From Candidatus Niyogibacteria bacterium (GTDB taxonomy: Bacteria > Patescibacteriota > Minisyncoccia > HO2-45-28), in contig JACOYI010000005.1 in NCBI GenBank assembly GCA_016181935.1, forward strand, positions 595 through 64,594: a DNA stretch of 64,000 bases, in the 5' to 3' direction. Shown in pieces: positions 3,230 to 53,115 of the stretch. Both the position numbers and the translations under genes were made by a program. Below the pieces are notes generated by a model. That model had not been told where the DNA came from, made no database searches, and worked only from the letters and a program-made list of their open reading frames with translations. Positions within the stretch are counted from its first letter, which is position 1; the number at the start of each line of letters is the position of its first letter.

Positions 3230-4098
3230 ACGAAACACTCAATGACTGGCTGCGTCAGGCGGCAGAGGAGCGCTGGGCCGTCCCGCACTTCAACATTTCG
3301 AATTTCGTCCAATTAAAGGGAGTTCTCGCGGCGTGCATGGAGGCGCATACGCCCGTCATGATCGGCACATCCGAAGGCGAAGCGGATTTTATCGGGTTTC
3401 GCATGGCGCGCCACTGGATCGACGCCGCCGAAGAGGAGACCGGTCTCGCGGTTTTTTTGAACGCCGATCATTTTCATAGTTTTGAGAAGGTCGCGGCCGC
3501 GCTGGATGCGGGATACGATTCGGCGCTTATTGATCTGTCCAAAAAACGCGTCGAAGATAATAGCGCCGAGACGCGCCGCGTCGTGGATCATGCCCATGCG
3601 AAAGATCGTGCGATCAGCATCGAGGGGGAGTTGGGATATTTGGTGACAGAATCATCGAAGATCTACAAAGAAGCGGTCGAGATCCCGCCCGAGAGTTTGA
3701 CGGATCCCGATGCGGCGCGCGCATTCGTGGAGACGACAGGAGTGGACCGGTTCGCGCCGGCCGTCGGGAATCTTCACGGTATTGCCGCAAATATGCCGCA
3801 ATTGGATTTTGAGCGGATCGCCGCCATACGCGCGGCGGTGCCGGCGAATGTCGCATTGGTTTTGCATGGCGGGTCCGGCATTCCGGATGACCAGATGCGC
3901 CGCGCGATCGAACTGGGATTCAATAATATTCATGTTTCGACCGAAATTCGCGTGGCGTATACGGACGCATTGCGCGCGGCGCTTGCGGCTATGCCCGACG
4001 AAACGACACCGTATAAATTTTACAAACCGGTCGTTGAAGCGGTTCGCATAAAAGCCATGGAAAAACTCCAATTATTCGGGAGTATTAATCGGATATAA
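3226..4098 (+). CDS. fba: Class II fructose/tagatose-1,6-bisphosphate aldolase
   Basis: 290 aa. PHFNISN..., LNADH..., HGGSG motifs typical of class II (zinc) FBP/TBP aldolases. Confidence 0.85.
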   Translation: MNETLNDWLRQAAEERWAVPHFNISNFVQLKGVLAACMEAHTPVMIGTSEGEADFIGFRMARHWIDAAEEETGLAVFLNADHFHSFEKVAAALDAGYDSALIDLSKKRVEDNSAETRRVVDHAHAKDRAISIEGELGYLVTESSKIYKEAVEIPPESLTDPDAARAFVETTGVDRFAPAVGNLHGIAANMPQLDFERIAAIRAAVPANVALVLHGGSGIPDDQMRRAIELGFNNIHVSTEIRVAYTDALRAALAAMPDETTPYKFYKPVVEAVRIKAMEKLQLFGSINRI

Positions 4099-4258
4099 TT
4101 TCATGAATTCAGGAAATCATTTTCTGGAATACGCTTGAATTTCCAGCGAAATTCAAGCTCCATCCTCGGCGCTTTGTTTTTTGATTCAGCAGAAAGTGTA
4201 ATCAAAAAACACCCTGCAAAGCGCCTGTGGGGCTTCCAAAAATAATTTCCTGAATTTA
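4099..4258 (+). repeat. Structured palindromic intergenic element, family A, copy 1 (about 160 bp, MITE/structured-RNA-like)
   Basis: Terminal inverted repeats TGAATTCAGGAAATCATTTT / AAAATAATTTCCTGAATT. Internal hairpins GCTTGAATTT..AAATTCAAGC and GGCGCTTTG...CAAAGCGCC. Second copy at 52936-53097 with compensatory substitutions. Confidence 0.6.
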
Positions 4259-10686: not shown

Positions 10687-10882
10687 GCCGCCTTAGCTCA
10701 ATTGGCAGAGCAACACTTTTGCCCGCCCGCCTAAGACGCGCCGTCCTAGCTCAATTGGCAGAGCAACAGTTTTGTAAACTGTAGGTTCCGGGTTCGACCC
10801 CCGGGGACGGCTCAACAATCGGCGCTAAGGCGCGTCGGGCGCGGTAAAGTGAAGGTTCTCGGTTCGACTCCGAGAGGCGGCT
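10687..10882 (+). tRNA. Interrupted tRNA gene: 5' half about 10687-10722 and 3' half about 10843-10882, separated by an insert containing tRNA-Thr(UGU). Anticodon ambiguous (GGU-Thr or UGC-Ala depending on the junction)
   Basis: Acceptor GCCGCCT pairs 7/7 with AGGCGGC 190 nt away. D-arm, anticodon stem (ACACT/AGTGA) and T-arm (CTCGG-TTCGACT-CCGAG) are all present in the two halves. Confidence 0.5.
10740..10812 (+). tRNA. tRNA-Thr (anticodon UGU)
   Basis: Hand-folded cloverleaf: acceptor GCCGTCC/GGACGGC, D-stem GCTC/GAGC, anticodon stem ACAGT/ACTGT, loop TTTGTAA, T-arm CCGGG-TTCGACC-CCCGG. Confidence 0.85.
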
Positions 10883-19431: not shown

Positions 19432-20667
19432 ATGAGTTCTAAAAAATTGATTTATCTGGATCACGCGGCGACCACCCCGGCGGACCCCGAGGTGGTTTTG
19501 GCGATGGAGCCGTATTGGCGCGATGTCGCTGCGAATCCGTCGTCCCTGCACCGGTGCGGACAGGCGGCCATCAAAGCCGTGGACGAAGCGCGGGAGGCCA
19601 TCGCAACATTCATGGGCGCCGCACACCCGCGCGAAATCATTTTTACGGGTTCGGCGACCGAAGCGAATAATCTTGCGATTCGCGGCATTGTCAAAAACTC
19701 GGTTTTTGACAAACCACATGTCGTTACGACCGCGATCGAACACGCGTCGGTTTTGGAAACGGTTCGTGCGCTTGCCCGCCAAAATTTTGCTTCGCAAAAC
19801 TTAGGCGGGCGAGAACAAACGGGCACGATCGAAGCGACGATCCTGCCGGTCGGTAGCGATGGCCGCGTATCGCCGGATGCGGTTCGAGCGGCCGTAAAAG
19901 AAAATACGGCGCTTGTCAGCATCGGCTATGCGAACAACGAGATCGGCACGCTCCAGCCGGTCGCCGAAATCGCGAAGGTGATTCGGGAGTTCCGAAAAAC
20001 CCAGTCTCCGCGCCTCCAGCCTCCAGCTTCTAGTCTCCAGCATCCAGTGTTTCATACCGACGCGGTTCAGGCGGCGCCGTGGCTGGATGTGGACGTAAAA
20101 AAACTCGGCGTCGATATGATGACCATTTCCGCGCACAAAATGTACGGCCCGAAGGGCGCGGGCGCGCTGTATGTAAAAGACGGAATACAGCTCGAGCCCG
20201 TTATCTACGGCGGAGGACAGGAATACGGATTGCGTTCCGGAACGGAAAATGTTCCGGCGATCGTTGGATTCGCAAAAGCCGCAGAAATGACGGGGGAATG
20301 GAAAAAAAGCGCGGCGAATATCGGCGTCATCGAAAAATTTCGCGACGATGCATGGAAAGAAGTACAGGCGATCGCACCGAATGCGGAATTGAACGGACCT
20401 GTCAAAAACCGTCTGCCGAACAATCTCAATATTTTTATTCCCGATGTCGATCCGGAAATTTTTCTGGTTGCACTTTCGGAAGACGGCATCTGTGTGTCGT
20501 CGGGCTCGGCGTGCGCCGCGCGCGCGCTCGGCGAATCGCATGTCATCACCGCGATCGGCAAGGGGGGTAACGATGGATGCCATTTGCGCATCACGTTTGG
20601 CCGGCAGACGACAGAGGACGATATCCGCGCGCTCGTCGCGGCAATGAAAAAGCGCCTCTCGGTTTGA
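19432..20667 (+). CDS. iscS: Cysteine desulfurase (IscS/NifS type) carrying an in-frame heptamer-repeat insertion
   Basis: MSSKKLIYLDHAATTP start with GAGAGGGG RBS. PLP Lys (SAHKMYGPKG) and catalytic Cys (SSGSACAA). Extra segment QSPRLQPPASSLQHP is encoded by (CTCCAGC)n at 20003-20049. Confidence 0.85.
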   Translation: MSSKKLIYLDHAATTPADPEVVLAMEPYWRDVAANPSSLHRCGQAAIKAVDEAREAIATFMGAAHPREIIFTGSATEANNLAIRGIVKNSVFDKPHVVTTAIEHASVLETVRALARQNFASQNLGGREQTGTIEATILPVGSDGRVSPDAVRAAVKENTALVSIGYANNEIGTLQPVAEIAKVIREFRKTQSPRLQPPASSLQHPVFHTDAVQAAPWLDVDVKKLGVDMMTISAHKMYGPKGAGALYVKDGIQLEPVIYGGGQEYGLRSGTENVPAIVGFAKAAEMTGEWKKSAANIGVIEKFRDDAWKEVQAIAPNAELNGPVKNRLPNNLNIFIPDVDPEIFLVALSEDGICVSSGSACAARALGESHVITAIGKGGNDGCHLRITFGRQTTEDDIRALVAAMKKRLSV

Positions 20668-31513: not shown

Positions 31514-33967
31514 ATGGCACACGATGCTGAAACGAAATTTCCTTCCGTGGTTCCGCTCTTTTGGTCGGATGTAACGATATTTCCGGGTCCGTGCGTGCGG
31601 CGGCTCAGTTTTCCGGTTGATCAAGATACGGTCCGCAATTTACAGGAGGCGACCAAGGGCGGATATTGCTTTGTGACATCCGCACCGAATGTCGAGGAAT
31701 TGCCCGGCGGGTCGCTGTGCAAAATTACGAAATTCCGTCCATTCGTTGGGCGTGAGATCGTTTTCATTCAGTATGTGGCGCTCGCGCGGGGGCACGTTAC
31801 ACAGATGCAGGAACCGCGGTCGGATTACGCGTTTGTCGAATGGAAACAGATCGACGATGTGCTGCCGCTTGAGGCACAGTTGGATGCGATGCTCCCGGCG
31901 GTCATAGAATTGCGTTCGTTGTTTGCGGAATTCGTCCGAATACTGGAGCTTCAAAGCACTCCGCGCATTGTTGTGGATCATACGCTGGGCGAAGGAATTG
32001 CCGCGCGCGCTCTCCGGCATCTGCAGGGACCGACGATCCAGAATATTTCGGAGATGATCGACGACGTGATGAACTTGGTAAGCGCAATGCCTCTTACGAA
32101 CGACGAACTTATCTCCGTGGTTCATGCGTATTTGCGTTCGATTCTTTGCGATGAGAGCGTTGAGGGGCGCATTGTGAAAGCGAACGAACTATTTCGTCTT
32201 ATTTTGCCCAAGAAAGAACTCGAACCCGCTTTTCATGGAGCGGCGGGCATCGGTAAAGGCGGGAAGAACAAAGTAGAGGATTATCGCAAACGGTTCGAGG
32301 AGATCAAACAGTACATTCCGAAGGAAAAATGGCCGCAGATCGAACGGGAAATTGTTTATGCGCAGGGCGATGATTCGAACGCCCGAGTATCGCGCAATTA
32401 CGTCGATTGTATGCTATCGATGCCGTGGGGCGTTTACACGGAGGATACGAAAGATCTGGTGCGTGTCCAGCAGGTTTTGGATGAGGATCATGACGGGCTG
32501 AAGAAAGTAAAAGAGCAGATCCTGAAATTCGTGGCGATCCGCCAATTGAATCCGTCCGCAAAAGGGCCGATTTTGTGTTTGGTCGGTCCGCCCGGCGTCG
32601 GCAAAACATCCATCGGCAAATCCATTGCGCGCTCTCTCGGACGAAAATTCGCGCGCATGGCGCTCGGCGGTGTGCGGGATGAGGCGGAACTCCGCGGTCA
32701 TCGCCGGACATACGTCGGCGCCATTCTGGGGAAGATCGCCACTATGATCCGCGATAGCGGAAGCTTCAATCCGCTGATCGTGCTCGATGAAGTGGACAAG
32801 GTGGGTCTGCATTTCGGGCATGATGACGTGGCGTCGGCGTTGCTTGAAGTTTTGGATCCCGAGCAGAATTCTTCTTTTGATGAGTATTATTTGGATATCC
32901 CACTCGATCTTTCACATAGTTTTTTTCTGACAACGGCGAATCTTGCGGAACCTATCATGCCGGCGCTCCGCGACCGGATGAAGATCATCCATCTCCCCGG
33001 TTATACGCCGCAGGAAAAAGTCGCGATCGCGGCCAATCATTTGATCCCGAAGCAGAAAAAAGAATGTGGGATCCCCATCGATCGCGATGGAAAAAAGGTG
33101 GATGCCGTGATCGCCCGCGAAACTCTTTCCGATATCATTCAGCGCTATACCTATGAGGCCGGCGTTCGCAATCTTGAGCAAATGATCTACGGGATTTTTG
33201 GGGAAGTGGATGTGGATTTTTTGAAGAAACCGGCGGAATACGGGCCAGATACCGTGATAACCGTCACTTCGGAGAATCTTTCTCGGTGGTGCGGTAAGCC
33301 GTTGCGGCACGACCATCCGATACCCAAGCATTTTCCAGCCGGTGTCGTGCCGGCACTGGGAGTGACGGACGCGGGCGGGCACGTATTTCTATTCGAAATT
33401 TCGCTCGGCGATCAATATCAGGAACGGAAGATCAAGTTGACCGGCGTTCGCGCTCCGCACGATCCGAAGGAGTCGGTGAATAAGATCGAAGAGTCGCTGC
33501 AGATCGCATTCGGTTATTTTTCATCGCGGACCGGACTTTTGTGCGAACGCATTCGGAAACTCGAAGCAGAGCACCCGTTGTATGTGCAGGGGAATCTGAC
33601 GGATGACGCGCCGAAGGATGGGCCGTCGGCGGGTGTTGCTGCCGCTGTCGCTTTGTATGGCGCGTTGACGGAAACGCCGGTTTCTGTGTTGCTTGCGGCA
33701 ACCGGCGCGATCTCGCTTTCGGGCGCAGTGGCGGCGGTCGGCGGCATTCGGGATAAGGTTCTGGCGGCGCATCGCGCCGGCATTCACAATGTTATTCTTC
33801 CGAAGGTGAACGAGTCGGATATCGAAGAAATTCCGGATGATGTCCGCTCGGAAATGCAGATCTTTCCGGTCTCGACGATTTTGGAAGCGCTCGAGGTCGC
33901 GTTTCCGAACGATCCGAGAATTCCGGCATTCATTGCGTCCTGCAATGCAGAGCGGAGCTCATCATGA
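31514..33967 (+). CDS. lon: ATP-dependent Lon protease (LonA)
   Basis: ATG 31514 with AGGAGA RBS. Lon N-domain, Walker A GPPGVGKTS, S16 catalytic DGPSAG and Lys. Confidence 0.9.
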   Translation: MAHDAETKFPSVVPLFWSDVTIFPGPCVRRLSFPVDQDTVRNLQEATKGGYCFVTSAPNVEELPGGSLCKITKFRPFVGREIVFIQYVALARGHVTQMQEPRSDYAFVEWKQIDDVLPLEAQLDAMLPAVIELRSLFAEFVRILELQSTPRIVVDHTLGEGIAARALRHLQGPTIQNISEMIDDVMNLVSAMPLTNDELISVVHAYLRSILCDESVEGRIVKANELFRLILPKKELEPAFHGAAGIGKGGKNKVEDYRKRFEEIKQYIPKEKWPQIEREIVYAQGDDSNARVSRNYVDCMLSMPWGVYTEDTKDLVRVQQVLDEDHDGLKKVKEQILKFVAIRQLNPSAKGPILCLVGPPGVGKTSIGKSIARSLGRKFARMALGGVRDEAELRGHRRTYVGAILGKIATMIRDSGSFNPLIVLDEVDKVGLHFGHDDVASALLEVLDPEQNSSFDEYYLDIPLDLSHSFFLTTANLAEPIMPALRDRMKIIHLPGYTPQEKVAIAANHLIPKQKKECGIPIDRDGKKVDAVIARETLSDIIQRYTYEAGVRNLEQMIYGIFGEVDVDFLKKPAEYGPDTVITVTSENLSRWCGKPLRHDHPIPKHFPAGVVPALGVTDAGGHVFLFEISLGDQYQERKIKLTGVRAPHDPKESVNKIEESLQIAFGYFSSRTGLLCERIRKLEAEHPLYVQGNLTDDAPKDGPSAGVAAAVALYGALTETPVSVLLAATGAISLSGAVAAVGGIRDKVLAAHRAGIHNVILPKVNESDIEEIPDDVRSEMQIFPVSTILEALEVAFPNDPRIPAFIASCNAERSSS

Positions 33968-33980
33968 GCTCCGTTTTTTT
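33946..33980 (+). terminator. Rho-independent terminator overlapping the lon stop (GGAGCTCATCATGAGCTCC + T8)
   Basis: 9-bp perfect stem followed by TTTTTTTT. Confidence 0.55.
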
Positions 33981-33986
33981 TGCTCG

Positions 33987-34054
33987 CCCCGTTAGAAATT
34001 CGAGGAAGTCTATAAGGATAATTTTTTGCGAATTGAGTACAATTTCTAATGGGG
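33987..34054 (+). repeat. 68-bp MITE-like element, family B, copy 1 (14-bp perfect TIRs CCCCGTTAGAAATT)
   Basis: TIRs at 33987-34000 and 34041-34054. 40-nt core is about 70% identical to the reverse complement of the core of the copy at 45603-45670. Confidence 0.55.
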
Positions 34055-34066
34055 TTATGATGGGGA

Positions 34067-34711
34067 ATGATTTCGAACGCTCCCGATCTCGCGGATCATC
34101 TCGAACGCATCGGTGTCCTGAAGATGCCCGCGTTGAAAAAAGCGTTCGAAGCGGTCGATCGCGCGGATTTTGTGCCCGAATCACAAAAGGAAAACGCCTA
34201 TGCGGATGAACCGCTGCCGATCGGCGAAGGACAGACGATCTCCCAGCCGTATACGGTCGCATTTATGCTCGAGCAGTTGCAGCCGCTTGAGGGCGAGCGG
34301 ATCTTGGATATCGGCGCAGGATCCGGCTGGCAAGCGGCGCTTCTTGCGCATATCGTAGGCGGGAAAGGACGGGTGGTCGCGATCGAGCGGATCAGGACGC
34401 TTTGCGATTTTGGCAGGAGGAACGTTTCAAAATATAATTTCATCCAGAAGGGGATCGTGGATTGGCGATGCGGCGACGCATCGCTCGGGGCCCCCGATGA
34501 GGAGCCGTTCGACGGCATCATCGCGGCCGCCGCATTAGAGAACGACAGAATTCCTGCCGTATGGCTCGATGGATTGCGTATCGGCGGAAGGCTTCTTTTT
34601 CCGATCTCGGGATCGCTCTGGAAATGGACCAAGCGTGCAGGTGAATTATTCGATAAAGAGGAGTTTCCCGGATTTGCATTCGTGCCGTTCGTAAAAAACC
34701 ATGACCGATAA
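34067..34711 (+). CDS. pcm: Protein-L-isoaspartate O-methyltransferase
   Basis: 214 aa. SQPYTVA, ILDIGAGSGWQAA (SAM motif I) and VVAIERI motifs. Confidence 0.85.
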   Translation: MISNAPDLADHLERIGVLKMPALKKAFEAVDRADFVPESQKENAYADEPLPIGEGQTISQPYTVAFMLEQLQPLEGERILDIGAGSGWQAALLAHIVGGKGRVVAIERIRTLCDFGRRNVSKYNFIQKGIVDWRCGDASLGAPDEEPFDGIIAAAALENDRIPAVWLDGLRIGGRLLFPISGSLWKWTKRAGELFDKEEFPGFAFVPFVKNHDR

Positions 34712-36825: not shown

Positions 36826-37935
36826 ATGAAAAGTCAAGATGTGCCGAAAGTATTCGTCGCCCTGTCGGGTGGCGTGGATAGCTCCGTGGCGGCCGCTCTG
36901 TTGCGAGAGCGGGGATTTGATGTGGTCGGCGCGCATATGAAGTGCTGGATTCCGGGAGCCGAAAACTGGGGGCTGGAAGCTGGAAATTGTGGAGCGGAAC
37001 GTGATGCGGAGGATGCGCGCCGTGTCGCCGAGGCGCTCGATATCCCGTTTTATGTATTCGATTTGGAGAAGGAATACCGCGAGCGCGTGTTTGATTATAT
37101 GCTCCGCGAATATGGAGCGGGCCGTACGCCGAATCCCGATGTGCTTTGCAATAGCGAGATCAAATTCGGCGTTTTTTTGGAGAAAGCGCTCTCGCTTGGC
37201 GCGGACTATATTGCGACGGGGCATTACGCTAGAAAAAAGCTGGAAGCTGGAAGCTGGAAGCTGGAAATTGCAAAAGATTTAAACAAAGATCAATCCTATT
37301 TTCTGTGGCGTCTTACGCAGGATCAGTTAAGCCGTACGATATTTCCCATCGGTGAATATACCAAACCCGAGGTGCGGGAACTTGCGCGAAAATACCATTT
37401 GCCGACCGCGGAAAAAAGGGATTCGCAGGGGCTTTGCTTTGTGGGGCATCTCGATTTTCACGATTATTTGCGAAGCGTATTGCCCAAGAAAACGGGCGAC
37501 GTGGTGACGACCTCCGGCAAAAAAGTGGGGGAGCATGACGGCGCGCATTTTTATACCATTGGCCAGCGGCATGGGCTCGGCATCGGCGGCGGGACGCCGT
37601 ATTATGTGGCGGCAAAAAACCTCGAAGCGAACACGCTGACGGTTGCGGAAGGCATCCATGATCCCGAATTATATGTAAAAGAAATTCATGTTGTGGATGT
37701 GAATTGGCTCTCCGGCACTGCACCTTCCAGCCTCCAGTCCCCAGCCTCCGACCTCCAGTATGACGCTCGCATCCGCTACCGCCAGCCGCTTCAAAGGTGC
37801 CACATCCAATCACTTGGAAACTCGGTTTCCAAGTTGCGGGTTGTGTTTGATGCGCCTCAGCGCGCGGCGACATCCGGCCAGTCCGCGGTGTTTTACAAAG
37901 GCGGCGAACTTTTGGGCGGGGGAATCATCGCTTGA
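36826..37935 (+). CDS. mnmA: tRNA-specific 2-thiouridylase MnmA, with three in-frame heptamer-repeat insertions
   Basis: PP-loop SGGVDSS, catalytic Cys contexts. (AGCTGGA)n / (CYTCCAG)n tracts at 36970-36987, 37238-37268 and 37723-37758 encode extra LEAG../SSLQSPAS.. segments. Confidence 0.85.
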   Translation: MKSQDVPKVFVALSGGVDSSVAAALLRERGFDVVGAHMKCWIPGAENWGLEAGNCGAERDAEDARRVAEALDIPFYVFDLEKEYRERVFDYMLREYGAGRTPNPDVLCNSEIKFGVFLEKALSLGADYIATGHYARKKLEAGSWKLEIAKDLNKDQSYFLWRLTQDQLSRTIFPIGEYTKPEVRELARKYHLPTAEKRDSQGLCFVGHLDFHDYLRSVLPKKTGDVVTTSGKKVGEHDGAHFYTIGQRHGLGIGGGTPYYVAAKNLEANTLTVAEGIHDPELYVKEIHVVDVNWLSGTAPSSLQSPASDLQYDARIRYRQPLQRCHIQSLGNSVSKLRVVFDAPQRAATSGQSAVFYKGGELLGGGIIA

Positions 37936-38004: not shown

Positions 38005-38606
38005 ATGCGCATGGCACGATGGTTTGCTCTCGCCGCAGTTGCCGCGTTTTCGGGCTTCATCGTCAACGGGTGTTCGGTTTCAAAGCCGGAAAAGCCGCGG
38101 GCACCACAAGCGATGGAATACGGCTATCTCCCGCCGATTACCATGCGAAGCCGATTTATGAGCAGGTACAAACTCTGTATCGTTTTTTCCCGGAACTTGA
38201 TACGAATCAAGGGTTCATGCCCTATGCGTACAAGATTCCCGAGGGCGCCGAAGGGCTTTTCGCCATCCCGCAATGGCAAGCAATTGCCCCAACCTACAAT
38301 GAAGCGGTGGAGAAGGTATTCGCCGCTCTTGCGAGCCAGAGGACGTTCCACAATTGGCTCGAAGGCCGCCTCAGTTCCGAATATCTGCGAAGAACACAGC
38401 GCACGATCGACATGTGGGAGAAGCTCGAAAAGGAACAGCGGGTGCACGACATTGTGCTCGTTCCCGCCCAATTCGGGTTCCGCCATCGCGGAAAATCCGT
38501 CCTGCAAGCCCGCGCCTCGTTCGCCGAGAACGAGTTCGGCCTTGGCGCTTACGAAATCGGCATCATGCTCCTGACACATCCGGAGCGACTTCAGGGCTCT
38601 AGTTAT
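38005..38606 (+). pseudogene. Lipoprotein gene, 5' part: frameshifted around 38100-38150 and truncated by transposon insertion at 38607
   Basis: Lipobox signal MRMARWFALAAVAAFSGFIVNGC in frame 1. Convincing protein continues in frame 0 (DGIRLSPADYHAKPIYEQ...GSSY). The reading frame resumes after the transposon at 41552. Confidence 0.5.
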
Positions 38607-38631
38607 GGCGACTATACCTTGAGAGCAGAAT

Positions 38632-39231
38632 CTAGTAAATATAGGTTGTAATGCTTGCTTCTGCAATTTCTTTCATGTGCTCAAAAAGTTCATTTTCCTG
38701 CCATGCGTTTTCTCTGAAAAACATTGATACGGGAGCGTATCCTTCTTTCTTGTGTATAAAAATACGATTCAATGGATAAAATTCATTCATCGTGATAACT
38801 CGATCTCGAATGGATGAACCCTCTGCAAAATCATCGCCCCATCCGAAGCAAACGAATGGCGTGATTTTTTCATATTGAAGTGTGGCTCGGATACCGATAA
38901 GATTTTTTCCCAATCGTTCAATCGCATTTCCTTGCGATTGCTTTTTTAAGCCCTCGGCGATTCGCTTCTTGTTCGTGCCCTGATGTTTCATCTCAACCGC
39001 AAGTGCGATTCTTCGATAGTTTTCATCGTCTTTTTTTCGTAATACCAAAATGCCGCCGTCCGGTTTTATGTAAGAGTCCTCTTTTGAGAGCGGAGAAAAC
39101 TCCGCCCGCTTGTCATATCCTTTGATAATTCCGATCAGTTCCGACAATTTGATGGATTTTACATATTCGAGATAGTAGCCAAGATTCGCAAGGTTAAAAC
39201 GGGTATTGAGATGCTCAATGACCCTTTTCAT
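38632..39231 (-). CDS. Putative Type II restriction endonuclease (PD-(D/E)xK)
   Basis: IKPDGGILVL...EMKHQG fits PD...ExK. Immediately downstream of, and co-directional with, the methyltransferase. Start taken at the internal ATG (MKRVIEHLN). Confidence 0.5.
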   Translation of the reverse strand: MKRVIEHLNTRFNLANLGYYLEYVKSIKLSELIGIIKGYDKRAEFSPLSKEDSYIKPDGGILVLRKKDDENYRRIALAVEMKHQGTNKKRIAEGLKKQSQGNAIERLGKNLIGIRATLQYEKITPFVCFGWGDDFAEGSSIRDRVITMNEFYPLNRIFIHKKEGYAPVSMFFRENAWQENELFEHMKEIAEASITTYIY

Positions 39232-39274
39232 CACCGCCGAAACCTTTTTGTCATCGCCCTTGGAAAGGACGTTT

Positions 39275-39952
39275 TTAGGCAAATGCTGGCTTTTGTTTCG
39301 GCGCAAGAAGTCGCTGTTGCTCATTATGGATATTTTTTACGAAATAATGGCCGCCCAGTTTTGGGATGTTGAAAATCAATACCTCGCTATGAAAGAGGAT
39401 GTTTTCAAAAACATCTTTTGGAAGCGATACGATGCTCGTAATGGGCGGATATTCTTCGTTGATAAATTTCACCCAGCGTTTGCTGTTTTCCGTCTGATTG
39501 AGGCGGAAGCCGTAAGGCGTGAACATCACGATGGGGACTTCACTGCCAAACAATTTCACTGCCTTTGCGAACCACACTTCGGGGAGCAAAGGACGACCGC
39601 CATAATGCTCTTTGATATACTGCTTTGTTTTCGAGTCAATGTTAAAAGGCGGATTCATAATGACGAGCGATATTTTTTCTTTTATCTCGTCCTTTTGAAT
39701 TTCCAAATAATTTTTAACTTTCGTGTTTGGAAAACCCTGATGTTCAATATCAATGCCCATTACTGCATAGCCGTCTTTTTTCCACGGCTTCAAAAGAGAA
39801 CCTTCTCCCACGCACGGATCAATGACGATTCCATCCGATTTTTTGATGTGCGGATGAATCAGATCGTAAAGAAATTCGCTTACATAATCGGGAGTGAAAA
39901 TCGTTGCTTTTTTCTCGTTTTTATAGAAATTGTTCCGATCTACCCGATACAT
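39275..39952 (-). CDS. N6-adenine DNA methyltransferase (gamma-class, NPPF motif)
   Basis: ATG 39952 (MYRVDRNNF); the listed start 39979 is a TTG. Motif I VIDPCVGEGSLL and motif IV VIMNPPFN. Confidence 0.8.
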   Translation of the reverse strand: MYRVDRNNFYKNEKKATIFTPDYVSEFLYDLIHPHIKKSDGIVIDPCVGEGSLLKPWKKDGYAVMGIDIEHQGFPNTKVKNYLEIQKDEIKEKISLVIMNPPFNIDSKTKQYIKEHYGGRPLLPEVWFAKAVKLFGSEVPIVMFTPYGFRLNQTENSKRWVKFINEEYPPITSIVSLPKDVFENILFHSEVLIFNIPKLGGHYFVKNIHNEQQRLLAPKQKPAFA

Positions 39953-40068
39953 AACTAAATAATGACATAGAAAGGGCAACCTGAATACTCGCCCTCAAAG
40001 GAGATGGGGATAAGTCAAAAAAGATGCTATTGTTGAGATAATGCAACGCAAGGACTTCCAATCCATCA

Positions 40069-40944
40069 TCAAACGGGCATCACAGCCCGTCCGAGAATGG
40101 AAGAAAACATCGGGCGCGAAACCAGACGCTGATTCCAGCGATACACGAATTCGTCCACATAACGCTGGAGATACTTCGGGGATACGGCATGGTGCGTCCC
40201 GTCCAGCGACCGCTTGAGTTGCGACCAAAAGCCCTCGATGGTGTTTGTATGTATTTTGCCACGCACATACTCCTTGATGCCGTGTTGGATGGTCTCGTGG
40301 CTGTATCCGTTTGAGCCGACCCGATTGTAGGATTTGAACTCGTCTGTAAAGATTATGCTTTGTTTGCGGACGGATTGCTGGATGATGGGCATGATGGTTT
40401 TACTTTTTACATTCTCAACAACTCGCGCTTTCACATTTCCTTTGCGGGATGCGATACCGAATACGGGCGTTTTGTGTTCTGCCCCGCGTCCGCGCTTGTT
40501 GTGCTTGCCCTTACCGCCGACATAGGTTTCATCCGCTTCCACCTCGCCGTAAAATTTGATGTTATTCTGCTCAAAGAGAAGCCGGATTTGCTGACCCATC
40601 CGCCACGCGCATTTATAGGTCATGCCGAGTTGCCGTTCCAATTCTTTCGCCGCGACACCATTCCGGCTTGAAGCGAACAAGAAGATAGCCCAGAACCAAT
40701 CTTTTAAGGATGTGTCCGATTTGTGGAAGATTGTGCCCGCGAGCGGATGGACGCTAAATCCGCATTGGCAATCGTATCGCTTGCGTCCGGCAATCCGGTG
40801 GAACTTTCCGCGCTTCTTGCACGATGGACAGGCATACCGCTTGCCATAGCGATTCAAAAAGATAGAATGAAGGCAGGCCTCATTGGTCGGGTAATCCCTT
40901 TCGAAATCCTTGCGCGTGTATTTTTTCATACCCCATCCTATCAA
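40069..40944 (-). CDS. IS1595-family (ISXO2-like) DDE transposase
   Basis: 291 aa. N-terminal zinc ribbon (CPSCKK..C), then a DDE core with DETYVGG, TDEFKSY and a C-terminal ISXO2-type region (VNRF). Confidence 0.85.
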   Translation of the reverse strand: MIGWGMKKYTRKDFERDYPTNEACLHSIFLNRYGKRYACPSCKKRGKFHRIAGRKRYDCQCGFSVHPLAGTIFHKSDTSLKDWFWAIFLFASSRNGVAAKELERQLGMTYKCAWRMGQQIRLLFEQNNIKFYGEVEADETYVGGKGKHNKRGRGAEHKTPVFGIASRKGNVKARVVENVKSKTIMPIIQQSVRKQSIIFTDEFKSYNRVGSNGYSHETIQHGIKEYVRGKIHTNTIEGFWSQLKRSLDGTHHAVSPKYLQRYVDEFVYRWNQRLVSRPMFSSILGRAVMPV

Positions 40945-41007
40945 AAGGAATACCTGCTGTCAAGGGATAAAATTATCAAGCAATAGATAGTAGTTTCTGT
41001 CAAAAGT

Positions 41008-41241
41008 ATGGTAGACGAGACAAATCCACAAGAAGATCAATTCGAACTAATTTTCAAAAATGGTGCTCTTGCTAACCTAAAAAAATTGGCGGGGAAATTA
41101 AACATTTCTGAAGAAAATTTAGGAGAAGCAGTAAATAAGAGTATTAAGATACTCTCGATCATAAAAAATGTTCGCACAAAAACCATTACTTTAGAAACCG
41201 AAGACAAGCAACGCTTTGTGCTGGATGCCGATGAGATATGA
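41008..41241 (+). CDS. Hypothetical small protein (77 aa) on the transposon
   Basis: AT-rich ORF, translationally coupled (ATGA) to the next ORF. Confidence 0.35.
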   Translation: MVDETNPQEDQFELIFKNGALANLKKLAGKLNISEENLGEAVNKSIKILSIIKNVRTKTITLETEDKQRFVLDADEI

Positions 41242-41519
41242 ACAAGAAATCTACGCAGACGCTCGAACTCGCTCCGGATACAAATTTACCGCCAGCAGAG
41301 GGCAGAGCAAATAAAAGAGAGGGAACGAGAAGTCAAATTGCGCTGTATTATGTTTTAGGATTTTTGATTCTTATATTACTCGCCCTAATCCTTTCTTTCG
41401 CATATAGATTAACGATCAATGATTTAAGAGATACGCTTCTCGCATTATCTGGTATCCTTTCCGGTCCGCTCGGTTTTATCATCGGTTATTATTTCAAATC
41501 ATATTCCGATCGAGAGTAA
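41238..41519 (+). CDS. Hypothetical small membrane protein (93 aa) on the transposon
   Basis: Two hydrophobic helices (ALYYVLGFLILILLALILSFAY; GILSGPLGFIIGYYF). Confidence 0.35.
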   Translation: MNKKSTQTLELAPDTNLPPAEGRANKREGTRSQIALYYVLGFLILILLALILSFAYRLTINDLRDTLLALSGILSGPLGFIIGYYFKSYSDRE

Positions 41520-41551
41520 TTCTGCCTTCAAGGTATAGTCGCCCTAGTTAT

Positions 41552-42672: not shown

Positions 42673-44436
42673 ATGAAGGCGGACGAGCTTCGGCTGAAAT
42701 TTCTCGAATTTTTCAAGAATCGGGGGCACGCCGTCGTGCCGTCGAGTCCGCTCGTACCCGATGATCCGTCGGTGCTTCTGACCACGGCGGGGATGCAGCA
42801 ATTCAAGCCGTACTACACGGGCGATGCCGACCCGATGAAGGACTTCGGTGCGAAAAACACAGCATCGGTCCAGAAGTGTTTCCGCGCCTCGGATATCGAT
42901 GAAGTGGGCGATGCAAGCCATCTGACATTTTTTGAAATGCTCGGCAATTTCAGTTTTGGCGGGTATTTCAAGGAAGACGCCATCCGCTGGGCGCACCAGT
43001 TCGTGACCAAGGAACTCGGCCTGAAGATCGACTATGTGACGGTTTTTGGCGGCACCGACACCGCGGGGCAGGCGATTCCGTCTGACACCGAGTCCGAACG
43101 GCTTTGGAAAGAAATGGACCCGGCGCTCGACGTGCATGTGCGGGGAATGGATGAGAATTTCTGGGGACCGACGGGCAAAGAAGGTCCCTGCGGGCCAACC
43201 ACGGAAATTTACGTGGGCGGTGTCGAGATTTGGAATATCGTATTCAACGAGTTTTTTTATCACGGGACGCGCGAGGAATTGCTCGCAGGCGCCGCAGGGA
43301 AGACATTGAAGCCGCTTAAAACCCCCGGGGTGGATACAGGCGCGGGGTTCGAGCGCATTGCGGTTGCGGTCCAAAAAAAAGAGCATGTTTTCCAAACGGA
43401 CCTGTTCGCGTCCGTAACGGCGCTTTTACCGCGCGATTTAGAAGAGCGCGCGCGCCGCATTATCGCGGACCATTTGCGCGCGAGCGCGTTTTTACTGGCC
43501 GACGGGGTACGGCCGTCCAACAAAGAAGCAGGATACGTCTTGCGGCGCATTCTTCGCCGCGCGCTGGCGTTCGAGCATATGCACGAAATGCCGGCCGGTA
43601 TTTTTGAAGATATTTTGACGGCCGTCATCCGGCAGTACGGCGGCTTTTATCCGGAACTGGAGCGCGAACGCGACGCGATGCTCGACGCGTATCGGGTGGA
43701 ACGCGAACGATTCGCGCATACGCTTTCCGCGGGTATCAAGGAATTGAATCGGCAGGGCGGCACGATCGACGCGAAAGGAGGTTTTCATTTGTATGAAAGT
43801 TACGGACTCCCGTACGAGGTCATCCGCGAGGTCGGCGGCGAGCGGGCGCGCGGTCTCACGCGCGACGCGTTCGATGCCGAATTCAAAAAACATCAAGACA
43901 AGTCGCGCGAGGGCGCCGAAAAAAAATTCGGCGGGCACGGATTGATCCTCGATACGGGCGAGCTGAAAGCCGCGACCGAGGAAGAGGTCAAAAAAGTGAC
44001 CCGTCTTCATACGGCAACGCATTTATTGCAATCGGCGCTCCGGAAGATCTTGGATCCGGATGTCCGGCAAATGGGTTCGGATATCACGTACATGCGAACA
44101 CGATTTGATTTTTCGTTTGCACGAAAACTCACGCCGGAGGAATTGAAGCGCGTCGAGGATGAGGTCAACGATATTATCCGCGCGGACCACCCTGTTACAA
44201 TGAAAGAAATGGACTATGAAGATGCCGTCGCATCGGGTGCGCTTTATTTTTTCCGCGAAAAATATCCCAAGCGCGTGAAAGTGTATACGGTGGGAACGGA
44301 CGACGTATTCTTCTCGCGCGAATTTTGCGGAGGGCCGCATGTGTCGCGCACGGGGGAGATCGGCGAGTTCCGGATTAAAAAAGAGGAGGCGGTCGCGTCG
44401 GGGGTCCGGCGGATTCGCGCCGTTGTCGAGCCCTAA
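42673..44436 (+). CDS. alaS: Alanyl-tRNA synthetase, short form (catalytic + tRNA-binding + editing domains, no C-Ala/DHHA1 domain)
   Basis: 587 aa. Class II motifs (FFEMLGNFSFGGYFKEDAI), editing-domain HTATHLL ... CGGPHV. Ends right after the editing domain. Confidence 0.85.
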   Translation: MKADELRLKFLEFFKNRGHAVVPSSPLVPDDPSVLLTTAGMQQFKPYYTGDADPMKDFGAKNTASVQKCFRASDIDEVGDASHLTFFEMLGNFSFGGYFKEDAIRWAHQFVTKELGLKIDYVTVFGGTDTAGQAIPSDTESERLWKEMDPALDVHVRGMDENFWGPTGKEGPCGPTTEIYVGGVEIWNIVFNEFFYHGTREELLAGAAGKTLKPLKTPGVDTGAGFERIAVAVQKKEHVFQTDLFASVTALLPRDLEERARRIIADHLRASAFLLADGVRPSNKEAGYVLRRILRRALAFEHMHEMPAGIFEDILTAVIRQYGGFYPELERERDAMLDAYRVERERFAHTLSAGIKELNRQGGTIDAKGGFHLYESYGLPYEVIREVGGERARGLTRDAFDAEFKKHQDKSREGAEKKFGGHGLILDTGELKAATEEEVKKVTRLHTATHLLQSALRKILDPDVRQMGSDITYMRTRFDFSFARKLTPEELKRVEDEVNDIIRADHPVTMKEMDYEDAVASGALYFFREKYPKRVKVYTVGTDDVFFSREFCGGPHVSRTGEIGEFRIKKEEAVASGVRRIRAVVEP

Positions 44437-45602
44437 TGGCGAAATTTTCGTCATCGCGGCCGCTTTTGGTTCTGGATGTCGGGAGTTCGGGCGTACACGC
44501 GGCCGTTGCCACACGAAACGCAAAGGGAGTTATTGATATCGAGCGGGTCGCACGCTCTCATCCGTTGGTTTTGCCGGAGGTGAATCTTAAAAAATTGTGG
44601 AAGAAGCTCCATGCGATGGCGGCGGACGTCGTCGGCGACCTGCGCAAAAGCGGGTCCCGGCCGCATTCGGCGGTCGTGATCTTCTCATCGCCGTGGTATT
44701 TTTCCGAAGTGCGGAGATTTACGCATGTGTCGGAAACGGCCGTGGAGATCACCGGAAAACTTCTGGATACGTTCATGGCGGAGGAGGAGGAGCGGTTTCG
44801 CGTCGGCGCGCTTGAACGGTTCCATGTGGCGGCGGACGAAGTGCTGATTTTGGAGCCCGTGCGCATGCGCGCGCTTTTGAACGGCTATCCGGCGGACTCT
44901 ATTGTCGGAAAGCGCGCCCAAGCGATCGAGGCCTTTATCTATTTATCCGCCGTATTCGGCCGTGCAAAGAGCGATATAAAAACCCTCCTGGCCGATAACG
45001 GCATCCGGCTCGCCGGCGTCCAGACGTCGCCGATGGCGCTGTATCGGACCGCCCAAGCGCTTGGCATTGCGGACGAAGGCAGGGTCGTTATCGATATCGG
45101 CGGGGAGATCACCGAGGTTTCTCTCATTAAAAACGGGATTCTTCATGACAGCGTTTCCTATGCCCGAGGCCTGAATTTTGCGGCGCGGCGCGTGGCTGAA
45201 GCGTTATCATTCGACGCAGAGGCGGCGATCGTGTATTTGCAGAATTATGGCGCGAGGGCGCTCGAAAACGGCAAAGCGGCCCGCGCAAAAAAAATCGTGC
45301 GCGATGCGGTTGACGAATGGAAGGCGCTTCTGGAAGATGCGTTCGAGCATCTGTCAGGGAAGGGGTTGTTGCCGGAAATAGCGCTTCTTGCGGGACCGGG
45401 CGGAATCCTTGCGGAATTCGCGACGGCGCTCGGTGTCGATGAATTCCGGCGTTTTACGATCTTCGGACGCCCGTTCACCGTTGAACAACTGACGCTCGAT
45501 CGCTTTGCGGATCGGTTCACGCATATCCCGTCCGTTTTTTCGAATGCGGAGCTCACGAATCTTTTGGTCGATATTTTGTACAGCTTTACGCGGAATCCAT
45601 GA
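44436..45602 (+). CDS. Actin-fold ATPase-like protein (FtsA/PilM-like), hypothetical
   Basis: 388 aa. LVLDVGSSGVHAA and VIDIGGEITEVSL resemble phosphate-1/phosphate-2 loops of FtsA/PilM/MreB-type ATPases. Weak. Confidence 0.5.
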   Translation: MAKFSSSRPLLVLDVGSSGVHAAVATRNAKGVIDIERVARSHPLVLPEVNLKKLWKKLHAMAADVVGDLRKSGSRPHSAVVIFSSPWYFSEVRRFTHVSETAVEITGKLLDTFMAEEEERFRVGALERFHVAADEVLILEPVRMRALLNGYPADSIVGKRAQAIEAFIYLSAVFGRAKSDIKTLLADNGIRLAGVQTSPMALYRTAQALGIADEGRVVIDIGGEITEVSLIKNGILHDSVSYARGLNFAARRVAEALSFDAEAAIVYLQNYGARALENGKAARAKKIVRDAVDEWKALLEDAFEHLSGKGLLPEIALLAGPGGILAEFATALGVDEFRRFTIFGRPFTVEQLTLDRFADRFTHIPSVFSNAELTNLLVDILYSFTRNP

Positions 45603-45670
45603 CCCCGTTAGAAATTGTACTCAATGCGTAAACGGTTGATTGTATGGACTTCATCGAATTTCTAACGGGG
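45603..45670 (-). repeat. 68-bp MITE-like element, family B, copy 2 (inverted relative to copy 1)
   Basis: TIRs CCCCGTTAGAAATT at 45603-45616 and AATTTCTAACGGGG at 45657-45670. Core matches the reverse complement of the 33987-34054 core. Confidence 0.55.
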
Positions 45671-45698
45671 CGTGGTAGAATAAAAAGAACATAACGCC

Positions 45699-47045
45699 AT
45701 GGAATCGCCGAATGAAAAAAAAGTTCCGGTCCGCGATATCATGCCCAATGTCTCCGCAAATGTGCGGAGCGATCACTCTGTGGAATCTTCCGGATCCGCC
45801 TCTGAATTGCCTCGGCGGGCGCGTGCGTCAAGGGCGGAGTTTTTCGCGCGAAAACCCGAACGTCTGCCTGCTTCAGATATGCTAGAAACCCCTCGCCGAT
45901 GGGGCTGGATGGGGGGATTCCGCTTTCCGTGGAAGATCACGGCCGCAAGCATCGGATTTCTTGCGGCGGCGGGGCTTGCGGTCAGCGCTTTTTCAAAGAC
46001 CGTGGTCATCATTACGCCGCGTGCCGAACAGGTCGCTGTCGTCATGACAGTATCGGTCGGCGGATCCGCGGGCCTTGCCGCTCAAGTAGCGAGCGCGGAG
46101 GAAACTCTCAGCATGCGCGCCAAATCGAGCGGAATGGAGGATATTTCGGAACGCGCCACCGGCCGCATTCTTATCTATAACGCGTATAGCGCCCTACCTC
46201 AGGCGCTTGTCCGCCGGACGCGGTTTGAAACTGCGGATGGCAAGGTGTATCGCCTCACCGAGGCCGTTACCGTTCCGGGCGCAACGGTCCTCGATGGGAA
46301 GATCGAACCGAGTTTTGTGGAAGCCGCCGTCGCCGCCGATCTGGCGGGCGAGGCCTCGAACATCGGGATCACGGATTTTACGATCCCCGGATTCAAAGGG
46401 GGCGCAAAATACGAAAAATTTTATGCGCATTCCAAAACGCCGATGACCGGCGGTTTTGCGGGAAGAACCGCCGTTATTCGGGAAGAAGATGTCCAGAACG
46501 CAAAACAATCGCTTGAGCGCGATCTGAAAAATACACTGACAACGCGTTTGAATGAGCGTTTGGGGCAGGGGTTGATCATTCCGGCGGATGCGGCCACCTA
46601 TACGATCGCCGTTTCTTCCGTGGAACCTGCGATCGGAGAACGCGGCGATGCCTTTGATATCCGCGTCACCGGCCAGGCGGCGGCGCTGGCGGTCCGGCGG
46701 CAAGATTTGGAAAAACAATTGCTGGAGCGGTACGGAAAAACCGCACTCCTGTCTCATCCGGAGATCCGCAACTTCGGCGACCTTGCGGTCCGCGCAACAG
46801 CGTCCGACCCCGTAAAAAAGGCGATGACGCTTTCCGTGACGGGCGATATGCAGTTGGTGTGGGGCGTGTCCATGGATGAATTAAAGAAAGGACTCCTGTC
46901 TGCGGCGGGCGTTGCGGGGCGCAACGCGGTTTTCGCTTCCTATCCCCAGATCGAGCGGGTCCGCGTTTCCTACCGGCCGAGCTGGTGGCGGATTTTTCCC
47001 CGATCCGAAGATAAGATCGTCGTGGAGGAGGATCTGGAACTCTAG
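45699..47045 (+). CDS. Hypothetical membrane-anchored protein (448 aa)
   Basis: Single TM (ITAASIGFLAAAGLAVSAF) after a charged N-terminus. Large extracytoplasmic domain with no recognised motifs. Confidence 0.55.
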   Translation: MESPNEKKVPVRDIMPNVSANVRSDHSVESSGSASELPRRARASRAEFFARKPERLPASDMLETPRRWGWMGGFRFPWKITAASIGFLAAAGLAVSAFSKTVVIITPRAEQVAVVMTVSVGGSAGLAAQVASAEETLSMRAKSSGMEDISERATGRILIYNAYSALPQALVRRTRFETADGKVYRLTEAVTVPGATVLDGKIEPSFVEAAVAADLAGEASNIGITDFTIPGFKGGAKYEKFYAHSKTPMTGGFAGRTAVIREEDVQNAKQSLERDLKNTLTTRLNERLGQGLIIPADAATYTIAVSSVEPAIGERGDAFDIRVTGQAAALAVRRQDLEKQLLERYGKTALLSHPEIRNFGDLAVRATASDPVKKAMTLSVTGDMQLVWGVSMDELKKGLLSAAGVAGRNAVFASYPQIERVRVSYRPSWWRIFPRSEDKIVVEEDLEL

Positions 47046-52354: not shown

Positions 52355-52935
52355 GGACCGATTCTGATTTGGACGCTGATTTGGACGTCTCACGTCCAAG
52401 TAAAAAAATGGGGGAGGAGGAGTTGGAAGTGGTGGAAACGGGGGATGGCGAGGATTTTGGAACGCGGGACGTGGCGGCCGCATTGAAAAAAGCAAAGCAC
52501 GAATTGAGCGAATGCCGGAAAAAAGCGGAGGAATATCTCGACGGCTGGCAGAGAGCGAAAGCGGATTTCATCAATCGCAGAAAAGACGAGGAGAAGGAGC
52601 GCGAAGCGATGGCGAAGTTTGCGAACGAAAAACTTGTGAAGGATGTCCTGAATATTCTTGACAGCTTGGAAATGGCGGCAAGGGCAGGGGATTCCGGAGT
52701 CGCGAATATCCATCGCCAGTTGGCACAGATCCTGAAGGGATACGGAGTGGAAGAACTATCGGCTGTCGGCGCCGCGTTCAACCCCGCAGAGCACGAAGCG
52801 ATGCTGGAGGAAGCGGTGGAGGATGAATCGAAAGACGGAATGGTGCTCGAGGAATTGCAGAAGGGCTACCGGATGCGGGACAAAGTGATTCGCGCGGCAA
52901 AAGTGAAAGTCGGGGTTTATCAAAAATCAAAATAA
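52351..52935 (+). CDS. grpE: Nucleotide exchange factor GrpE
   Basis: 194 aa. Coiled-coil N-terminus and conserved C-terminal beta-domain (GYRMRDKVIRAAKV.V). Start overlaps the hrcA stop. Confidence 0.85.
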   Translation: MRTDSDLDADLDVSRPSKKMGEEELEVVETGDGEDFGTRDVAAALKKAKHELSECRKKAEEYLDGWQRAKADFINRRKDEEKEREAMAKFANEKLVKDVLNILDSLEMAARAGDSGVANIHRQLAQILKGYGVEELSAVGAAFNPAEHEAMLEEAVEDESKDGMVLEELQKGYRMRDKVIRAAKVKVGVYQKSK

Positions 52936-53097
52936 ATTCATGAATTACGAAATCCATTTTAGAGTACGCTTGAACGCCCAGCGGCATTCAAGCTCCGTCC
53001 TCGGCGCTTTGCTTTTTGGCTCGCTTCGCGAAATTTTAGCCAAAAAGCACCATGCAAAGCGCCTGCGGGGCCTCTAAATGGACTTCGTAATTCATTC
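52936..53097 (+). repeat. Structured palindromic intergenic element, family A, copy 2
   Basis: Same architecture as 4099-4258: TIRs TGAATTACGAAATCCATTTT / AAATGGACTTCGTAATTCA, conserved GGCGCTTTG...CAAAGCGCC stem, inner hairpins with compensatory changes. Occupies the grpE-dnaK spacer. Confidence 0.6.
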
Positions 53098-53115
53098 ATT
53101 AACTAACGAAATATT

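Follow-up and report, generated by a model that had tools for sequence, protein, structure and literature searches.

The Correia elements (CREE) of Neisseria are the best-studied of the bacterial MITEs; they are 100-155 bp long, are bounded by 26-bp inverted repeats and duplicate a TA at their point of insertion. The palindromic elements of Rickettsia (RPE), found in that genus only, measure 100-150 bp and show no preference for start codons. The REP/BIME sequences are mobilised by RAYT (TnpA-REP), carry a GTAG head, leave no target-site duplication and are species-specific; their hairpins, when they lie after genes, can stabilise the upstream mRNA. Some insertion sequences carry outward-facing or hybrid promoters. 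The IS1380 insertion sequences and the eukaryotic piggyBac transposons have CC(C) termini and duplicate 4(-5) bp of the target, the duplicated sequence of piggyBac being TTAA and its 13-bp end CCCTAGAAAGATA. The Patescibacteria, with their small and tightly packed genomes, have been thought to be poor in mobile elements.

In the present work we analyze a pair of 68-bp repeats in a 64-kb stretch of a Niyogibacteria genome (the window, by which we mean the whole of that stretch) together with a family of elements that have the same ends in other genomes. An initial annotation had placed the two repeats at 33987-34054 (copy 1) and 45603-45670 (copy 2), where both are indeed found, and we consider it quite probable that they are non-autonomous copies of a palindromic DNA transposon of about 60-85 bp, that is, a MITE. 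The element belongs neither to the Correia elements, the RPE or the REP nor to any Rfam family. Like the Correia elements and other MITEs, the family is short, non-coding, bounded by inverted repeats, associated with a target duplication, dispersed, polymorphic, adjacent to genes and able to form an RNA hairpin. Unlike the Correia elements, which are confined to Neisseria, its members are 60-85 bp in size, have 14-bp repeats, duplicate 4 bp of the form TNNA, retain unchanged ends across phyla and for the most part sit precisely on start codons, which are regenerated. With the RPE the family shares the property of being read through in frame with the addition of a peptide, as in gyrA, a penicillin-binding protein gene and, in one locus (L057), a putative rsmH; but it is unrelated to them in sequence and prefers start codons, and its lengths are divisible by 3 in 9 of 32 cases, in-frame lengths thus not being enriched. 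The window elements resemble REP/BIME in being short intergenic palindromes that form an inverted pair and provide hairpins after genes, whereas the family differs from REP/BIME in its 4-bp duplication, in arms that start with CCCC, in having no GTAG and in ends that are shared across phyla.

Each window copy is composed of a 14-nt arm, a 40-nt core and the reverse-complement arm. The left arms (33987-34000 and 45603-45616, plus strand) are both exact matches to CCCCGTTAGAAATT; the right arm of copy 2 (AATTTCTAACGGGG, 45657-45670, plus strand) is its exact reverse complement, and that of copy 1 (AATTTCTAATGGGG, 34041-34054, plus strand) has 1 mismatch. The terminal repeats had been described as identical and perfect, which is true of copy 2 (14 of 14 positions pair) and one base too generous for copy 1 (13 of 14), in which T34050 has replaced the consensus C opposite G33991 and gives a G:U pair in the plus-strand RNA. 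When the 14-mer was sought with up to 2 mismatches, the window gave 4 matches, all of them these arms, where 0.73 would be expected. The cores, which had been estimated to agree at about 27 of 40 positions as reverse complements, agree in that sense at 28 of 40 and directly at 13 of 40; the two copies are therefore inverted relative to each other, and the earlier statement that the element has inserted in both orientations holds. A repeat search of the window likewise returned them as an 86-nt inverted repeat with 78% complementarity. A covariance model based on 66 elements from elsewhere, with the window copies left out, matched within the 64 kb only copy 1 (48.0 bits, E = 9.7e-8) and copy 2 (47.7 bits, with 45.7 bits on the other strand), both thus at E of about 1e-7; the next-best match had an E of 6.8. 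We assign neither copy to a strand, the gene-facing orientation of the window copies being undecidable when the strand scores of copy 2 differ by only 2 bits.

The genome-wide search for further arm pairs that had been recommended was made on one genome per species, with the pattern GTTAGAAATT-N25-55-AATTTCTAAYGG and with exact arms required, which biases it to conserved or young copies. It gave at least 118 loci with the same arms, those among the matches listed being mostly from MAGs of Patescibacteria and Planctomycetota; the record titles among these matches name Patescibacteria, Pirellulales, Sedimentisphaerales, Phycisphaerae, Omnitrophota, Elusimicrobia and KSB1. For two phyla the assignment was checked independently: the window belongs to the Niyogibacteria, one of its proteins being 100% identical to that of a Candidatus Niyogibacteria MAG on a 79.7-kb contig, and the gyrA of locus L056 is 84-94% identical to proteins named as Sedimentisphaerales or Phycisphaerales. 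Several contigs of a single MAG can bear elements (for example JACPHD01 and JAUWYA01, among the matches listed), and L057 contains 4-5 of them within 3.5 kb of a cell-division gene cluster. The terminal inverted repeat of the family is a nearly invariant 14 bp, (C/T)CCCGTTAGAAATT; the arms are invariant across the 66 aligned members, and nearly all of the matches listed extend to (C/T)CCC...GGG(G/A) ends. Most of these matches have a total size of 60-89 bp, and their cores differ from one genome to another. That the two window copies owe their likeness to chance, or to a local duplication confined to the contig, can be practically dismissed: there are only two of them in 64 kb, but they lie 11.5 kb apart, are inverted and differ at 30% of their core positions, the independent model recognizes both, and the same arms recur at the many loci of other genomes. 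The initial annotation had named local duplication as what would be left if there were no additional copies and no variation in their presence, and both of these were found. Beyond the edges of the window, a Logan search returned only short contigs identical to the window itself.

Several other identities were considered and set aside. In Rfam, only tRNAs match at the gathering threshold, and raising E up to 10 adds only weak chance matches; a literature search found neither the arm sequence in a bacterial context nor such an element in these phyla. We found this family of tiny transposable elements described neither in Rfam nor in the papers searched. An integron attC site was rejected on reading the arms, whose GTT...AAC polarity is the reverse of that of R''/R'. 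Viruses were examined as carriers, and the 4 matches in viral contigs proved to be without CCCC/GGGG ends, that is, chance matches. Metagenomes were also scanned for the subfamily to which the window copies belong (TTAGAAATTGTAC...CGAATTTCTAA), and two copies of one unrelated locus were recovered.

Some of the loci depart from the common form. In MAGs labelled as Saccharibacteria (L005, L007, L078, L094, L103 and others) the ends are TCCC...GGGA, the left flank is a conserved (T)ACTTG and there is no flanking direct repeat; this subgroup represents either a longer unit or a different way of spreading. Lone right arms without a partner occur in L096 (at 7052) and L099 (at 2687), one of them abutting a gene start (AATTTCTAACAGGGTGAA), which suggests that they arose from the element by partial deletion. 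L062 has a tandem of two elements (2239-2437), in which the TGAA duplication of one served as the insertion site of the next, and in L134 the left arm of an element in gyrA is interrupted (500-530) by a 23-nt G+C-rich palindromic insert; these two cases are evidence of repeated insertion at one site.

The evidence that the family transposes comes from its flanks. Among the matches listed, identical 4-mers stand on both sides of 61 of 95 elements (permutation mean 10.5, maximum 22), and the next 4-mers outward, taken as a control, are identical in 0 of the 95; a further count on the same matches gives 22 of 95 without any flanking repeat. The duplicated sequences, in these same matches, are TGAA (18), TTCA (17), TTTA (5), TAAA (5) and others, with the consensus TNNA. 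The gyrA gene of the Phycisphaerae provides a filled and an empty version of one site, ATGAA[80 bp]TGAAGG vs ATGAAGG: the filled site reads ATGAA[80 bp]TGAAGGAAGTC in L056 and is filled also in L134, and the empty site, in L132 and L133, reads ATGAAGGAAGTC. The DNA of these two empty sites was taken from two homologues whose protein starts with MKEVKK. Among the best 120 GyrA homologues (84-100% identical), more than 100 start with MKEVKK or MKEIEK, and 4 of the 5 closest after the self-match start with an extension of the M..KRKISNGVKEV type or a close variant of it; the element is here read in frame and adds 28 codons.

At the two sites in the window a comparison of presence and absence, which had also been recommended, revealed variation at both. 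Copy 2 is absent from another Niyogibacteria MAG (L125), in which the orthologue of the ORF at 44436-45602 is 76% identical; TGAattggtaaaataaaagg comes after it there, in contrast to the TGA[68 bp]cgtggtagaataaaaag of the window. Copy 1 is absent from L129, whose PCMT gene is 79% identical and whose junction reads terminator-TTTTTG|TTAGGATGGGG (also given as TTAGGATGGGGTGATG), where the window has TTTTTTTTG-CTCG-[68 bp]-TTATGATGGGG (also given as TTATGATGGGGAATG). The covariance model gave no match in L125-L129, nor in L132 and L133. Since these relatives are so diverged (76-79% identity), the boundaries of the window insertions are not reconstructable base by base, and the empty sites, when set beside the window, reveal no duplication. 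L125 has a 94-aa GIY-YIG gene (2192-2476) between its counterparts of the genes on either side of copy 2, so the same intergenic site took up different insertions in the two lineages. The proposed check of the flanks for target-site duplications succeeds at the level of the family and fails for both window copies, which are flanked by CTCG/TTAT (copy 1) and ATGA/CGTG (copy 2). The earlier view of these repeats as MITE-like mobile elements is upheld by the additional copies, the variation in presence, the 4-bp duplication of the family and the filled and empty gyrA sites; the elements are short, code for no transposase, have terminal inverted repeats and dispersed copies and are polymorphic at orthologous sites, with a duplication at the family level only.

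Both window copies lie between genes. Copy 1 occupies the lon-pcm spacer, beginning 19 nt past the lon stop (33967), behind the lon terminator hairpin (33949-33977), and ending 12 nt 5' of the ATG (34067) of pcm, a PCMT methyltransferase gene; copy 2 begins at the first base past the TGA of the ORF at 44436-45602 and ends 28 nt 5' of an ATG at 45699. The position immediately downstream of a gene stop that had been noted for both is thus exact for copy 2 and loose for copy 1. It had further been proposed that the copies could double as terminator hairpins. Beyond the stems the sequence continues with TTATGATG and CGTGGTAG, with no T tract in either case, and a terminator scan called only the hairpin of lon at 33949-33977 and nothing at copies 1 or 2, so that a terminator role is unsupported; lon has its own intrinsic terminator (33949-33981, plus strand), with a 13-pair stem and a T run, outside the element.

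A wider version of this idea is that the hairpins are functional RNA elements (stabilisers of 3' ends like the REP of E. coli, RNase III sites or terminators) maintained by selection on the stem, their mobility being irrelevant today. Both copies do fold into a 14-bp stem far below shuffled controls (z = -3.4 to -5.0), copy 1 with -20.6 kcal/mol on the plus strand and -12.7 kcal/mol on the minus strand, and its sole arm substitution leaves a G:U pair on the strand that is cotranscribed with lon and pcm. Between the two copies, moreover, the arms are much better conserved than the cores (27 of 28 positions vs 28 of 40, p = 0.01), a difference which fits two insertions from diverged sources or selection on the stem, and perfect arms alongside absent target duplications could mean that selection maintains a hairpin that did not insert recently. 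Against this stand the lack of a T tract or terminator-like site at either copy, the relatives that are without either hairpin at the same junctions, the absence of an Rfam match and the occurrence of the same arms with target-site duplications in other phyla, which indicates an origin at the DNA level; we therefore regard an explanation in terms of RNA function alone as unlikely and retain that of a MITE.

An unusual property of the family is its relation to translation starts. Of the approximately 111 elements among the matches listed, 66 face a long ORF, always on one side only, and the codon at the junction is ATG in 29 and GTG in 27 of the gene-facing elements. In 30 gene-facing elements of these matches the left flank, oriented by the duplication, is ATGAA, and the right junction, GGG(G/A)|TGAA, starts the long ORF. 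The last base of the element and the duplicated TG rebuild the start codon, ...GGGA giving ATG and ...GGGG giving GTG. Among the matches listed, 24 of 27 elements of the GTG type contain an ATG in frame, vs 3 of 29 of the ATG type (Fisher p = 2.6e-9); of the directions without a gene in front of them, 13 of 133 have one. In the GTG-type elements this internal ATG adds an N-terminal M-x(2-6)-ISNGV. A polarity is also visible within the element, since part of a third arm, A[AT][CT]GGG, whose sequence is complementary to that of the gene-distal arm and which lies just inside it, occurs in this orientation in 30 of the matches listed and is reversed in 1. In proteins that start at the junction, Pfam domains begin at residue 1 (pyruvate kinase, L31, NrdR), and the junction is thus a true N-terminus. 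In murC (L025, L095) the element lies within the first codons, and its own ATG gives the N-terminus MKKLSKISNGV-HFIGIGG.

In L057 some copies provide the opening codons of the gene for the penicillin-binding protein and of genes next to it. A minimal 29-bp element consisting of arms only (715-743) makes up the first codons (MNPVRNGISNGV) of another ORF, and a 62-bp member with TTTA duplications (3492-3553) is translated in frame in the C-terminal part of the putative rsmH (...NLNPVRDNGNKKEISKSNKISNGINIL...).

Two possible consequences for expression were pursued at the level of the family and rejected. The first was translational coupling from the original ATG: the short frame opened there stops in the core in 23 of 32 elements, stops at a TAA of the arm in 4 and reads through in frame in 5, and as most of these frames end in the core, such coupling is not a general mechanism. 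The second was an internal -10 box: TATAAT-like hexamers are equally frequent on the two strands (50 vs 54 of the 66 cores, which are AT-rich), and hence an internal promoter is not demonstrated for the family as a whole.

The conservation of 14-bp arms across phyla, with cores free to vary, might alternatively reflect a protein-binding palindrome, the operator of some shared regulator, in place of transposon ends; the arm variants that are matched on both sides (GAAGTT/AACTTC, GACAT/ATGTC, GAGAT/ATCTC) agree with this as well. The distance between the half-sites is, however, variable (25-57 bp among the matches listed), the adjoining genes are functionally unrelated (gyrA, pheT, proS, murJ, pyk, efp, rplC, rpmE, nrdR and murC, to which a phosphoglucomutase gene may be added among the housekeeping targets), some copies are translated in frame within ORFs, and neither 4-bp duplications nor filled and empty sites are expected of an operator. 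We judge this alternative very improbable, and continue to treat the arms as the ends of a transposable element.

Like the promoter-bearing insertion sequences, the family lands at the 5' end of genes and supplies them with expression signals; unlike them, its members are of 60-85 bp and what they demonstrably supply is a start codon and N-terminal codons, a promoter being only putative. These observations lead us to put forward, tentatively and as something we find rather less than probable, that the family is, beyond a selfish MITE, a cross-phylum mobile "start-codon cassette" which inserts in the TGAA of ATGAA with a fixed polarity, replaces the native translation start by a rebuilt ATG or by an internal one that tags the protein with M-x(n)-ISNGV, possibly brings in new transcription signals and so rewires housekeeping genes of Patescibacteria and Planctomycetota (gyrA and genes for aminoacyl-tRNA synthetases, ribosomal proteins and cell division). 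The window copies are off this pattern, being intergenic, in opposite orientations and without a recognisable duplication; they would be off-target insertions under such a scheme, with copy 1 perhaps feeding a -35 to pcm.

This last point can be considered in its own right. Copy 1 may have been co-opted as part of a promoter that yields a leaderless or nearly leaderless pcm transcript, which would be compatible with its being a MITE and would add to it. A promoter-like sequence, TTGAGT-17-TATGAT (34033-34061, plus strand; 2 sites vs 0.3 expected), has its -35-like hexamer within copy 1; the -10-like one belongs to the native spacer and stops 6 nt 5' of the pcm ATG at 34067. The -10 region is native, since L129, without the element, has TTAGGAT there, and the fixed polarity of family members at gene 5' ends speaks for such a role. 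The site is, however, a consensus match only (9 of 12 positions), the equal number of -10-like hexamers on the two strands offers no support from the family, and L129 manages without the element; promoter co-option in copy 1 is accordingly a possibility that we regard as doubtful. The pcm N-terminus, MISNA, was examined as a relic of the arm (ISNG) and rejected, L129 having MISSA in the same place with no element. Just 3' of copy 2 and outside it, direct reading reveals a native extended -10-like sequence, TGGTAGAAT (45673-45681, plus strand), in the place of which L125, also without the element, has TGGTAAAAT.

As for the mechanism, we envisage that a trans-acting transposase of the DDE type would bind the two identical ends, make a 4-bp staggered cut at TNNA and insert the element. 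The window copies would then be separate insertions derived from diverged source copies; in this genome they are probably passive hairpins only, and copy 1 may in addition contribute its -35-like hexamer to the pcm promoter. The search for an autonomous element, made in about 0.9 Mb of loci, found no arm pair at 0.14-5 kb with a matching duplication or an enclosed transposase, the scans of the genome collection having covered arm spacings up to 600 bp, and there was no transposase beside solitary arms. Our guess at the driver is an IS1380/piggyBac-like transposase, to judge from the CC termini and the 4-bp duplication: the family has CCCC/TCCC termini and a TNNA duplication of which TTAA is a subset, and the piggyBac end CCCTAGAAAGATA resembles CCCCGTTAGAAATT. 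The piggyBac transposons have themselves been paired with IS1380 (PMC5718144). Since neither a transposase of the IS1380 type nor a full-length element bearing these ends came to light, the resemblance serves as a lead only.

For the window itself the result is a modest one, two intergenic fossil copies that mark lineage-specific insertions. The unusual features belong to the family, whose ends are the same in different phyla and whose members are associated with start codons. The presence of the same 14-bp ends in many lineages of Patescibacteria and in Planctomycetota implies either recent exchange across phyla or a very strongly constrained interaction between transposase and ends, and it makes the family a marker for gene flow among the uncultured bacteria of groundwater and sediment. 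It also follows that the start sites and N-termini of many MAG genes are mis-called or altered; the GyrA entries in the databases begin with MMQKRKISNGVKEV.. or MKEVKK.. according to the insertion. Whether the elements affect the transcription or translation of the essential genes beside them is a testable question.

The window contains other sequences of a mobile or repetitive nature. A low-GC insertion of 2,937 bp (38607-41543, within 38599-41551; about 46% vs 54%) is bounded by inverted repeats of ~25 bp (GGCGACTATACCTTGAGAGCAGAAT), and outside these a direct repeat of 8 bp, CTAGTTAT, stands at 38599-38606 and 41544-41551. It carries on the minus strand the gene for a transposase of the IS1595 family (40069-40944; Pfam 2.7e-47), together with genes for an EcoRI-like endonuclease (38632-39324) and part of an N6-methylase (39275-39979), and looks like an IS1595-type transposon with a restriction-modification cargo. 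Its transposase, the only one in the window, was considered as a partner of the 68-bp elements and rejected, as the ends of the transposon are unrelated to theirs and its duplication is of 8 bp. Another repeat family, of about 120 bp, has copies at 4122-4240 and 52957-53078 that are 82-86% identical, the second being bracketed by 25-nt inverted repeats (52935-52959 and 53076-53100); it is probably another MITE-like element. The 35 nt at 10687-10721 repeat, with 91% identity, the 5' half of the tRNA-Thr gene next to them (10740-10813), a partial duplicate that could be an integration scar. Lastly, heptad-like tandem repeats of GCTGGAA / TCCAGC(C/T) occur in coding regions at 36949-37273 and at 20015-20048 / 37726-37759.
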